From positions 64,001 through 128,000 of IMG/VR virus record IMGVR_UViG_3300044797_000394: a stretch of 64,000 nucleotides of DNA; one strand, given 5' to 3'. Shown piece after piece: positions 26,122-61,281 of the stretch (positions within the stretch are counted from its first letter, which is position 1; each line of letters begins with the position of its first letter). This DNA is from a virus. The position numbers and the translations under genes were made by a program. The notes beneath the pieces were generated by a model, which was not told the origin of the DNA, did no database searches, and saw only the letters and a list, made by a program, of their open reading frames with translations.

Positions 26122-26627
26122 TGAACCGCGGTGACATCGTAACGTGTGATGGGACCTGGTATGTCGTAGTCCAGGTCAACTCGGACGATAGCACTCTCCT
26201 CTTGGACAAGGATGACACTGTGTTGATTGTCCAATCGGATGATCCAAAGTACAAGGTTGAGTTCAACCCGTTTGAACAGTGGCCCTTTATCGTGTTGCCC
26301 CATCGCTCCTATAAGTGGGGTGACCTTACTTCTGTGGCCCATCCTACAAATCTTCTTGAGACACCCGTACCGCTTCGAATCTTTCAGGATTGGCTCCTTG
26401 GTGAACCTGAGAGGAGCGGCGGAACTCTCTACCTGAATCCCAAGCTAAGGTTGCGGCATCTTGACCGAATTGTTCTTACTTACACGAGGGGCAGCACGAG
26501 CGTCATTGTGCCAAAGAACTTCAGGAACGTCTCCATTAGGGCCGCCTCCTCAAGGTTCGGTAGGGTGAAAGTTGCCGAAGTGAAAACGGTATTCGATCAT
26601 TTGCTCAAAGATGACGAGGATACCTGA
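26121..26627 (+). CDS. hypothetical protein with C-terminal HLLxDD tag
   Basis: TGATG overlap. Ends KTVFDHLLKDDEDT. Confidence 0.65.
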   Translation: MNRGDIVTCDGTWYVVVQVNSDDSTLLLDKDDTVLIVQSDDPKYKVEFNPFEQWPFIVLPHRSYKWGDLTSVAHPTNLLETPVPLRIFQDWLLGEPERSGGTLYLNPKLRLRHLDRIVLTYTRGSTSVIVPKNFRNVSIRAASSRFGRVKVAEVKTVFDHLLKDDEDT

Positions 26628-27259
26628 TGTCCCGCAAACTCCCAGTCATTGCTGAGATCAGTCTTTCTCAAGTGTATTCGGCCGAGATTGAGGTAGCATC
26701 CAACTTTGAGGCGTTAGTACGCAACACGGCTCACGACGAGGGCCTCACTGTGTCTTGTCGTTCTGGGTGTTCGAATTGCTGCTACCACCCCGTCCATTTG
26801 ACCGTGGTCGAGGGCATGCTTCTATATAAAAACCTCGTATCCAGGGGACGCTGGACGCCCAGCCTAAAGGCTACCTTTGAGGAACACGCGAGCAAGGTGA
26901 GGGATGCGTCCTACGAAGTTTGGCTGCTCAGTATGATTCCGTGCCCCTTGCTCGATGAGGGGACTAAGAAATGCACGGTTTACAATGCACGGCCTTTTCA
27001 ATGTCGAGTTACGTACTCCACGGGGGATCCCTACAATTGCCATCCCCATCGAATTCTTGAGTCAGAAATCGTCAATAAAAGGGATGTGACCGAGGAGTTT
27101 CACAGTCGAGTGAATCGTGCGATACGCAAGCACGGAATCACGACCATCATCATGCCCCTCAGTGTGGCGGTTCTCGTGGGGGAAAAGATATCCAACGGGG
27201 AATATGACTTGGACGGGGCAGACATGGCCATCTTTAAAGACTACGTTGAAAACACATGA
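26627..27259 (+). CDS. YkgJ/CxxxCxxCC Fe-S or Zn cluster protein
   Basis: CRSGCSNCC...CPLL....CTVYNARPFQCR. Confidence 0.85.
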   Translation: MSRKLPVIAEISLSQVYSAEIEVASNFEALVRNTAHDEGLTVSCRSGCSNCCYHPVHLTVVEGMLLYKNLVSRGRWTPSLKATFEEHASKVRDASYEVWLLSMIPCPLLDEGTKKCTVYNARPFQCRVTYSTGDPYNCHPHRILESEIVNKRDVTEEFHSRVNRAIRKHGITTIIMPLSVAVLVGEKISNGEYDLDGADMAIFKDYVENT

Positions 27260-27540
27260 AGTGCTGCGTTTGCCACCGGGACAAGGAAGCTTTCCAAACC
27301 CTCACTCTTACGTCTGAGGAGAAGTTGCTGGTTGCTTCAGCTACTGGTAAACCTGCGCCCGACACAACGACCTACTGCAAGGCCTGTTGGAAGATCGTTA
27401 CGAGCAAAGTGCAGGGATCTCAGCTCTACAAGGGAATGTTGCAGCTTTACCTACGAGCTGCTGGTGTAAGTCAGGCTGAACGTATCGCCGACGCCGTTCA
27501 AGCGAGGATGGTGTCCAAAGCCGGGGGCAAGCCCTCTTGA
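27256..27540 (+). CDS. small Zn-finger protein
   Basis: CCVC...YCKAC. Confidence 0.55.
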   Translation: MKCCVCHRDKEAFQTLTLTSEEKLLVASATGKPAPDTTTYCKACWKIVTSKVQGSQLYKGMLQLYLRAAGVSQAERIADAVQARMVSKAGGKPS

Positions 27541-27549
27541 GGTTCCAAC

Positions 27550-58719: not shown

Positions 58720-59517
58720 ATGGAACTCATATGGATCACCGACCCGCACCTTAACTTTCTGGGACAACCCTTCGGTCCGAAGGCATTTGGGGTGTCCGTG
58801 TTTGAGGAGCACCCTAACCTCGATGCCGTGGTTATGACAGGAGACCTGGCTGAGTGCGACTCGTTCAAAGAGATGGTGGAGTCCTTTGCCCAAGGAGTCG
58901 GGAAGACTGTTTGGTTCGTACTTGGCAACCATGACGCGTACAACGGTTCTATTCGTTGGATGAAGAAGCAGGCAGCTTCAATGAAGGGTCTTGCCCGATG
59001 GCTAGTCACCGAGAAGCTCGTGGAACTTGCTCCCGGAGTCGCCTTGGTTGGCCAGGATGGTTGGTATGACGCTAGGAACGGAAAGCCACAGACATCGAAC
59101 GTGGCCCTGTCGGACTTCTTTGCGATAGGAGAGTTTCTTGGGAAATGGGGGAACGGTATAATCGCCGAAGCCAGTTCCTTAGCGGACAATGAGGCTCAGG
59201 TCGCGGATCGTTCCTTGAGAGAGGCTATCGAGAAGGGTTACAAACGCATCGTGTTTGCAACGCACGTTCCCCCGTACGCGTTGGCAACTTGGCACGAGGG
59301 AAAGATCTCTGACGGGAACTTTCTACCTTGGATGAGCAGTAAAGTTATGGGTGAGGTACTCGACGAGATCGTGTCGGAACATCTCGACGTGGATATTACC
59401 GTACTGTGCGGTCATACTCATAGTCCCGGCACTTACCGTAGGGCCCCAAACCTGACCGTTTTGACCGGACGATCTCGCTACGGATACCCTTGCGTGTCGG
59501 GCGAGTTCAACTTTTAA
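58720..59517 (+). CDS. Icc/CpdA-like metallophosphoesterase
   Basis: TDPH, TGDL, GNHD, THVPP, CGHTH. Confidence 0.85.
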   Translation: MELIWITDPHLNFLGQPFGPKAFGVSVFEEHPNLDAVVMTGDLAECDSFKEMVESFAQGVGKTVWFVLGNHDAYNGSIRWMKKQAASMKGLARWLVTEKLVELAPGVALVGQDGWYDARNGKPQTSNVALSDFFAIGEFLGKWGNGIIAEASSLADNEAQVADRSLREAIEKGYKRIVFATHVPPYALATWHEGKISDGNFLPWMSSKVMGEVLDEIVSEHLDVDITVLCGHTHSPGTYRRAPNLTVLTGRSRYGYPCVSGEFNF

Positions 59518-59873
59518 ACTCGCTTCAGAACCCGAAGGAGTTTGCCTACGATCTCGTGGGTCAAATCATTCCATTTGGAAGCGAGAAGTACGGCAATTTG
59601 CACGTGGTCGTCGCTTTTATCCTCAGTGGACAAAATGACTTTTCCACGATCGCGAGCCGCGGCCGCCAATAGGGGAATCGGGTCTGCCTGAAGGTATGAA
59701 GCGATTTTCCGAACCCTTTCATCCGAAGGCGGGTCTCGATGACCTCGTTCGATGTCGGATAGATAGGGCAGGCTGACGTCCAGGGAATCCGCCAAATCTT
59801 TGAGTTTGACCTCCTTGGCGGTTCGGGCTTCACGCATAGCTGGACCGAACAATTTTGAGCTCTCGTTCTTCAC
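59514..59873 (-). CDS. XRE-family HTH transcriptional regulator
   Basis: FG..MREAR....LKDLADSLDVSLPYLSDIERGHRDPP. GTG 11 nt after TGGTGTA. Confidence 0.85.
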   Translation of the reverse strand: MKNESSKLFGPAMREARTAKEVKLKDLADSLDVSLPYLSDIERGHRDPPSDERVRKIASYLQADPIPLLAAAARDRGKVILSTEDKSDDHVQIAVLLASKWNDLTHEIVGKLLRVLKRV

Positions 59874-59892
59874 AATGGAATACCTACACCAT

Positions 59893-61281
59893 TCAATCGT
59901 CGTCGAGGAGATGATCGAACGCCGTTTTCTTCTCAACCTTCTTGAACTTGCGAGCATTCGTAAAGTCATCCACGGGCACATTACGAGTACGTCCTGTAGA
60001 CCCACCAAACACAACGGCGGTCATTTTGCGGAGGTCGACCGACTGTATTCTGACATATTCATCAGACTCGAAGGAGAACCACTCCTCATCGATCTCGAGG
60101 TGAATGGTAGGATGGGGTTCTGGTACGGTTTCATTTGTGGGTAGACCACTTTTCACATACTCGGTGTGAAAATCGTTCAACCAGAGAATACACGGGGACG
60201 TCGTTTCTAACGCCCCTTTCAAAGCGACGGACCATTGACCGTCGTTCTCCTCTACCCTTAAAATCTCAACTTCTTTGCCGGTCTCCCGCTGGTAGTAGAC
60301 GCTTCCGACTTTGGGAAGTTTGATTGTCGCCGCCTGAGACACGCTGTCCGTGGTCCCCTTCATTTCTGGGTCAATCATAGGGGTCGTTCCCATGATCCTC
60401 TTGACCATCGAGACTACTCCACCTAGCACCGTGCTGGGCTCAGAGGGTGGTGGGGGTGGCGCGGGAACAGGAGGGAGCACGGACTTTCCTCCGATACCAC
60501 CGATCTTTTGGATGGGTCGACGGCTGACGGTGCTCCCTGCGGGTGCCCTTCTCGCCCGAACAAGTACGGATCCGTCGGTAAGGGACGCGATCATGTGCAC
60601 GGGGATACCCCCGAACTTAGCGATTTCGAACCCCGAGTCTGGTACTACCTTTTCATCTACAACGATGTCGTAGCGCTTGCTGTTCTGTCGAAGAGCCTCC
60701 CAGGCGGAACGACTGCATTCGATGCGATTGATTTCAGAACTCTCGAGCATCGTTTCCGTTAGTTCCATGATGGTGTCCGCGTACCACCGACCATAGTTGT
60801 CTACGTTCTTGGACGGTTCAGAAATGAGTCCCCAACGGGAGCTGCACAGAGTGCACGTCCACCACCCGAATTCCCCGCGTTCGAGTCGACCGAGTCGAAC
60901 GTCCTCGACGGGGTCCATACTCCCACATTCGGGGCACTGGATGACGTTTCTCGGAGGTTGGCTAGTGGGGATAGCGGCTCCCGGAGTGTGCATTGTCGCT
61001 AAAATGCCTACAGGTAGGTGCTTAGGGCACACAAAGTCTGGAGAGGTGCCTCTCGAATACGTGAGAATCCCGGGTTCCTTGCACCGGGAACAGTGCAGGG
61101 AAGTCTGGGGCGGCGCCGCGACCATGTGCCACTGTCCCTCGAATCGGCTCGTGGGAACGTGCATGCGGGCACCCGTAAGGGCGACGAGGGTGACCCGCGT
61201 GTTGGTCACCTCCGCCACGATTCCCCGTGTGATACGGCTGTGCTGGTCTCCTGTTTCCCACGTTTCACCGGGTTGGGGCAT
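59893..61281 (-). CDS. multidomain protein (SH3-like and Zn-ribbon modules) with C-terminal tag
   Basis: PQPGETW and PKVGSVY-type modules, CxxC pairs, ends KKTAFDHLLDDD. Confidence 0.65.
   Translation of the reverse strand: MPQPGETWETGDQHSRITRGIVAEVTNTRVTLVALTGARMHVPTSRFEGQWHMVAAPPQTSLHCSRCKEPGILTYSRGTSPDFVCPKHLPVGILATMHTPGAAIPTSQPPRNVIQCPECGSMDPVEDVRLGRLERGEFGWWTCTLCSSRWGLISEPSKNVDNYGRWYADTIMELTETMLESSEINRIECSRSAWEALRQNSKRYDIVVDEKVVPDSGFEIAKFGGIPVHMIASLTDGSVLVRARRAPAGSTVSRRPIQKIGGIGGKSVLPPVPAPPPPPSEPSTVLGGVVSMVKRIMGTTPMIDPEMKGTTDSVSQAATIKLPKVGSVYYQRETGKEVEILRVEENDGQWSVALKGALETTSPCILWLNDFHTEYVKSGLPTNETVPEPHPTIHLEIDEEWFSFESDEYVRIQSVDLRKMTAVVFGGSTGRTRNVPVDDFTNARKFKKVEKKTAFDHLLDDD

Follow-up and report, generated by a model that had tools for sequence, protein, structure and literature searches.

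A window of 64,000 nucleotides, bases 64001–128000 of the 156-kb virus record IMGVR_UViG_3300044797_000394 (G000), encodes seven otherwise dissimilar proteins that end in a common short peptide, here called the tag. There is selection on the tag at the peptide level, a bias to C-termini, conservation in relatives, a disordered tether in front of it, and concerted change from lineage to lineage. On balance we favour the reading in which unrelated accessory (non-structural) proteins carry the tag as a portable short linear motif that serves as an address or docking label for one common reader, and we infer that the tag binds that single reader. No description of such a tag was found in the literature searched. 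The seven copies are the following (aa, amino acids).

26583..26624 (gene 26121–26627), plus strand: tag of the 168-aa carrier, an 8-residue core with a 6-residue acidic tail
49879..49908 (gene 49636–49911), plus strand: tag of the 91-aa zinc-ribbon carrier (PF01396, E 8e-10)
50410..50442 (gene 50407–50955), minus strand: tag of the 182-aa carrier with an N-terminal membrane anchor
55059..55094 (gene 54105–55097), plus strand: tag of the ~330-aa carrier, whose start codon is uncertain, the C-terminus being unaffected
55957..55989 (gene 55540–55992), plus strand: tag of the 150-aa carrier, kept in four orthologues
56285..56323 (gene 56282–56515), minus strand: variant tag; the 77-aa carrier is an orthologue of the C-terminal portion of L001 15950–16669 (E 5e-7)
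59896..59928 (gene 59893–61281), minus strand: tag of the 462-aa carrier, which has zinc ribbons and KOW/Tudor/SH3-like barrels

All seven open reading frames translate with the C-termini that an earlier sequence-only reading had given, with the motif 2–6 residues before the stop codon. That reading had also described the carriers as unrelated and as including a zinc ribbon, a membrane protein and SH3-like modules, and this is what we see. With the tags removed there is no significant mutual similarity (best E 0.05), the 91-aa carrier matches the zinc-ribbon family listed above, the 182-aa carrier has by eye an N-terminal hydrophobic segment followed by basic residues, and the small beta-barrels of the 462-aa carrier match KOW, Tudor and SH3-like tandem domains. 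The variant copy is a genuine member, since the 77-aa protein is orthologous to, and shorter than, a tagged 239-aa protein of the related locus L001. Winged-helix-like small proteins, zinc ribbons and KOW-like barrels are found among the carriers, several of which look like nucleic-acid binders; a fold search with the 150-aa carrier gave no match. Most of the ~330-aa carrier is disordered. It has Cys residues clustered at the N-terminus and an internal set of three L-x-x-L-W repeats, and since it also ends in the tag it may be a multivalent scaffold. We note that these repeats have acidic flanks and are conserved (54105–55097; L001 19905–20930; L004 19475–20140).

The codons for the common residues vary between the copies (Leu is TTG, CTC, CTG or TTA, His is CAT or CAC, and Asp is GAT or GAC), and the DNA downstream of the stop codons is unrelated, so that selection has acted on the peptide rather than on a repeated DNA element. 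A strict version of the pattern, as written in the sequence-only reading, has five matches in a six-frame translation of the whole 156-kb record, and all five are at most six residues from the stop codon of long open reading frames. For a broader test, an eight-column matrix was built only from the tags of related contigs (L001, L003 and L005), which avoids circularity, and was used at a threshold of ≥12 bits to scan the 160 predicted proteins of G000. There are matches at 6 of 1,280 C-terminal positions and at 1 of 45,967 internal positions (Fisher p = 2.7e-9), and shuffled proteomes give 0.01 C-terminal matches; enrichment at C-termini over internal and shuffled controls had been named beforehand as the test of the motif, and it is borne out. 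The only internal match at this threshold is helix II of a J-domain protein, and is taken as a chance likeness between amphipathic helices. In the same scan no structural protein has the tag. It is also absent from Pol A, DnaB and SNF2 proteins, and most other phage proteins lack acidic-run ends of this type.

Two further sequences were considered. A 282-aa HExxH protein (52037–52885) was rejected as an eighth member because its end is not conserved in orthologues. Outside the window, the gene at G000 146934–147905 has a tag-like stretch near residue 58 of 323 (Thr-Val-Trp-Asp-Phe-Leu, then acidic residues; 11.6 bits), which may be an internal copy of the motif.

A consensus built over ~30 copies has the following core.

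Position 1: often Lys
Position 2: Thr or Ser
Position 3: a small residue, or Trp
Position 4: Trp, Phe, Tyr or His
Position 6: His or Arg
Position 7: Leu or Ile
Position 8: Met or Leu

The core is followed by two to six mostly acidic residues, with a Phe or Tyr sometimes present at the end in relatives. Thr or Ser at position 2 together with Asp, Glu or Gln at position 5 would form a helix N-cap, and positions 4, 7 and 8 would lie on one hydrophobic face. The distance from the core to the C-terminus is 2–7 residues, or ~12 in one family, and because this length varies the free carboxylate does not serve as the anchor. The Pro/Lys-rich linker that had been described in front of the tag is borne out in its Pro content, with 13% Pro over the 25 preceding residues. 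AlphaFold predicts the 150-aa carrier to be folded over residues 1–120 and disordered over 121–140, with a helix over the core at 142–145 that is not packed on the body; in the 462-aa carrier it predicts several small beta-barrels, a stretch of 70 disordered residues and, at the end, a helix over 454–461. These models support a layout in which the body is folded, the Pro-rich linker is disordered and the terminus is a short helix.

CheckV estimates the completeness of G000 at ~33%. It shows synteny with the 363-kb IMG/VR record G001 (76% complete), and homologous proteins are found on contigs of 246–570 kb, so the window is a fragment of an uncultured huge phage. It covers the genome's replication and accessory region, with genes for a SNF2 helicase, DnaB, a family A polymerase, a Ycf46-type AAA, ClpX, thymidylate synthase, methylases, RNase HII, a 2H phosphoesterase and a J-domain protein; there are three AAA+ genes, and many ORFans on both strands. 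A DNA search found no close relatives among cultured phages, and none were found in the species genomes searched. A tblastn search of phage records with the 462-aa carrier gave no match, as did word-based scans of IMG/VR with two single carriers as queries.

The tag is kept in relatives, as the sequence-only reading would lead one to expect, and this extends to carriers whose bodies have diverged. The 462-aa carrier has six homologues with 42–55% identity, all six of which have the tag, and the loci around them (L001, L003, L004 and L005) have two to eight tagged genes each per ~20 kb; in the 21-kb locus L001 these are 7 or 8 of 39 genes, or about one in five. The orthologues of the ~330-aa carrier in L001 and L004 keep the tag with a variant sequence. 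For the 168-aa carrier, the tag is kept in orthologues in L091 and L093 and in a positional counterpart in G001, and this family retains it in more distant relatives whose ClpX is only ~60% identical. Two other examples involve positional counterparts in G001 whose bodies no longer align: that of the zinc-ribbon carrier (G001 43022–43486) is tagged, and that of the 182-aa membrane carrier (G001 42254–42589) has a tag-like end. When G001 was scanned with the matrix, six of the seven best scores were C-terminal, and all of the detected tags are within 6–83 kb, the part syntenic with window 24–67 kb; the tag is confined to one accessory gene module.

The tag occurs in phages of 54% and 62% GC, and pattern scans suggest that its distribution is otherwise narrow. 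A back-translated class with a Trp-x-His-Leu-Met core gave 59 matches in Joint Genome Institute metagenomes, which by a rough estimate is about the number due to chance, and only five of these end within a few codons of a stop, all in one identical 30-codon frame; the same class had no match in IMG/VR. A second back-translated class was found twice in G001 and on one contig where the match is not C-terminal. These scans rule out a generic C-terminal motif, and as the metagenome matches are near chance and the stop-proximal ones are a single frame, the tag is probably private to this clade of uncultured huge phages.

A further feature is the behaviour of core position 8, which is Met in 16 of the 17 tags of L001, L003 and L004 but in only 2 of the 7 tags here, where it is otherwise Leu or Val (p = 0.003, a value that overstates the independence of the tags because those of the three loci are partly orthologous). 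In L005 it is Ile in both tags. Orthologous and non-orthologous carriers switch together, and the 462-aa and 150-aa families both have Met in the relatives and Leu here. Concerted change of this kind is what a common, co-evolving binding site predicts, and we count it for one reader; the pattern points to a single co-evolving partner.

The sequence-only reading had proposed a short amphipathic helix that docks many proteins onto one hub. The helix, the tether, the conservation in orthologues, the restriction to one module and the concerted change all agree with this, and it is the hub that we infer. The tag would fold into a short amphipathic helix on docking in a groove of one common cytoplasmic reader, and all of the tagged proteins would thereby be handled as one group. 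The tagged end of the membrane-anchored 182-aa carrier is predicted to be cytoplasmic, which we count in favour of docking. Two candidate readers are encoded in the window.

18628..19914, plus strand: phage ClpX, candidate reader, with a C4 zinc domain, a GYVG pore loop and an LGF ClpP-docking loop
10481..12085, plus strand: Ycf46-type AAA ATPase, second candidate reader, with a conserved ~280-aa N-terminal domain

The leading candidate for the reader, although we give it no more than a minority chance, is the phage's own re-modelled ClpX unfoldase, in which case the tag would tether substrates for timed removal, or adaptors, and ClpP would come from the host. The phage ClpX is 68.5% identical to that of G001, and the contigs behind L001 and L003, like G001, have a ClpX gene and all carry tags. 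The clade to which it belongs, found in no cultured phage, has a conserved insertion of 7–9 residues at the site of the E. coli RKH specificity loop, absent from the nearest bacterial homologues, and a 2-residue insertion in the zinc domain relative to them. The Ycf46-type AAA is 66% identical to its G001 counterpart and its large N-domain is conserved; it, another phage protein and a conserved host protein are all alternative candidate readers.

The closest parallel in layout is the SspB XB peptide of E. coli, which is also a short C-terminal peptide on a long flexible linker behind a folded body, a likeness that the Pro-rich linker and the predicted disorder bring out here. XB tethers its protein to an AAA+ unfoldase through the ClpX zinc-binding domain, and the phage encodes a ClpX in which this domain is intact. 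However, XB is basic and hydrophobic (Leu-Arg-Val-Val-Lys type) and unrelated in sequence to the amphipathic, acidic tag, and here many different proteins carry the peptide and the link to a reader would be by analogy. Nor does the tag resemble an ssrA-type (C-motif 1) ClpX degron, which has a non-polar Leu-Ala-Ala-type end with the carboxylate at a fixed distance, whereas the tag ends in Asp/Glu-rich tails of 2–7 residues, or ~12 in one family. The suggestion in the sequence-only reading that the acidic end is incompatible with ssrA-type recognition agrees with knowledge of E. coli ClpX, and applies with the reservation that the phage ClpX is re-modelled.

Several points weigh against a docking label read by ClpX or, in the last case, by any one reader. 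The co-occurrence of ClpX and tag is seen within one clade only, and shared descent is a confounder. Bacterial ClpX zinc domains are more basic than that of the phage, so that charge complementarity with an acidic tag is not suggested, and the tag is unlike both the known ClpX degron classes and the SspB tail. A ClpP gene was not found in the available parts of G000 (33%) and G001 (76%). Finally, there is the partial orthology of the tags in the position-8 comparison.

Seven other proteins carry a second motif, (L)-R-V-A-A-R-F/Y, which is closer to the SspB XB peptide than the acidic tag is. In three of them it is at residues 5–6, and these include both genes flanking ClpX. The carriers are as follows.

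18296–18580: carrier of (L)-R-V-A-A-R-F/Y
19938–20657: carrier of the same motif
32238–33659: carrier of the same motif
33656–35050: carrier of the same motif
35149–35781: carrier of the same motif
51021–52040: carrier of the same motif
52037–52885: carrier of the same motif

A docking label is not the only account of the tag, and one alternative is that it mimics a conserved hub of the host, or acts as a handle for one, so that early phage proteins would dock there; RNA polymerase, the beta clamp, the readers of SSB tails, or DnaK working with the phage J-protein are examples. The RB69/T4 polymerase tail is hydrophobic then acidic, and the tag is similar. The clamp tails of T4/RB69 gp43, gp33 and gp55 and the acidic tails of T7 gp2.5 and gp4 are comparable in that a short hydrophobic-acidic tail on several unlike phage proteins serves one partner, and in 7 of the 17 tags in L001, L003 and L004 the acid run is followed by a final Phe or Tyr, as in the T7 tails. 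The resemblance of several carriers to nucleic-acid binders would also fit. However, none of the seven tags here has a terminal aromatic residue, the order in the tag is helix first and then acid run, and the carriers are accessory ORFans rather than replisome or late-transcription proteins, with no replication enzyme among them. A beta-clamp gene was not found in the available parts of G000 and G001 (searched with PF00712; the gp45 family was not searched). The occurrence of the tag at both GC contents means that a host reader would need to be well conserved, and the lineage-wise change of the core is easier to explain by a fast-evolving phage reader. As for DnaK, the gene for a J-domain protein (61327–61743) adjoins, in divergent orientation, that of the 462-aa carrier here and in most relatives (L001, L003 and L004), but is absent from that place in L005. 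We consider a host hub unlikely. A signal that loads or targets proteins to a shell, either an assembling capsid with packaged and injected proteins or an encapsulin-like compartment, seems quite unlikely, even though the architecture is that of encapsulin cargo-loading and microcompartment encapsulation peptides, in which unrelated cargo is marked by a short helix at the terminus, joined through a flexible linker. One L003 carrier is a free-standing peptidoglycan-binding domain that adjoins an endolysin gene, which would be sensible for an injected protein, and a language-model search placed the 380-aa gene that follows the Ycf46-type ATPase (12101–13243) among capsid-family neighbours at 0.90. 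The latter hint was not reproduced with a homologue, and searches of Pfam and PHROGs and a profile search against PDB sequences were negative, as were profile comparisons (hhalign) with a major-capsid-protein-like gene of G001 and with N4 gp56; we therefore do not count a capsid-like identity of this gene as support, and these searches tie no shell gene to the tag. Moreover, the tag has no likeness to the encapsulin peptide consensus, no cleavage motif is seen, no structural protein is tagged, and among the carriers are likely DNA binders and one protein anchored in the membrane.

The other two alternatives do without a reader. An acidic C-terminus could act as a stability tail that shields short-lived small proteins from host proteases favouring non-polar ends, as the sequence-only reading had also proposed. 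All of the tags end in acidic runs, and degrons lacking a non-polar ALAA end are poorly degraded by E. coli ClpXP (PMC8512704). This accounts for the acidic end and leaves unexplained the conserved amphipathic core, with its Thr/Ser cap, aromatic residue and Leu-Met pair, together with the concerted change of that core and its restriction to one module; with most other phage proteins lacking such ends as well, we regard a stability tail as improbable. A DNA-level element at gene ends, such as a terminator, promoter or repeat, or simple chance, has a negligible probability. Only the position at gene ends favours it, where the sequence GGTGTA often follows stop codons since it precedes the next start. 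The variation in synonymous codons and downstream DNA and the matrix statistics refute both, and the tag is kept in relatives of different GC content.

Other known systems offer looser parallels to the docking label that we favour. The ESCRT-III MIT-interacting motifs, read by Vps4, and Pup, read by Mpa, are C-terminal helices, acidic and amphipathic, to which an AAA+ protein binds through its N-terminal domain; the parallel is one of analogy, and neither has a sequence or family relationship to the tag. Ligands of the TPR carboxylate clamp (EEVD type) have a fixed distance between carboxylate and hydrophobic residue, which the variable tail of the tag lacks. By analogy, the tag would work like the SspB XB, T4, T7 and cargo-peptide tails, and by sequence and defining features it appears to be a member of none of these groups.

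Three other features of these genomes are noted. In the non-structural part, many start codons have the sequence GGTGTA 15–18 nucleotides upstream, and structural genes rarely do. This sequence may act as a promoter specific to one gene class or as an unusual signal for translation. Examples are at these window positions.

1149: GGTGTA
10465: GGTGTA
18611: GGTGTA
28897: GGTGTA
55100: GGTGTA
58702: GGTGTA

The gene at 62118–62450 encodes a 110-aa treble-clef zinc protein (PF13451) with an Arg/Gly-rich segment and an acidic tail that ends in Phe; the tail is like those of SSB or T7 gp2.5, although the acid runs of the orthologues lack the Phe. In locus L018 (13056–15015; G001 213–215 kb) a 293-aa open reading frame has a weak Phage_capsid match just below the cut-off, and because a LAGLIDADG homing endonuclease gene follows directly after it, the capsid gene there may be interrupted.

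In eukaryotic viruses the organisation of sets of proteins by short linear motifs is well known, and in phages, to our knowledge, it is known for few systems only, among them the clamp tails of T4 and the acidic tails of T7. In the present clade one peptide marks a considerable fraction of one module's genes and provides a handle on dozens of ORFans, and the identity of the reader would give all of the tagged ORFans a shared pathway. If the reader is the phage ClpX, this would explain why huge phages encode an unfoldase of their own. A more elaborate scheme, which we hold to be doubtful, is a private huge-phage addressing system in which the tag recruits changing effectors or adaptors to the rewired ClpX or another phage AAA+ protein, and host ClpP clears early proteins on schedule, or host targets bound by the variable bodies are unfolded or destroyed, amounting to viral adaptor-based targeted degradation. 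The tag and its reader could also serve as an orthogonal pair for tethering or degradation.

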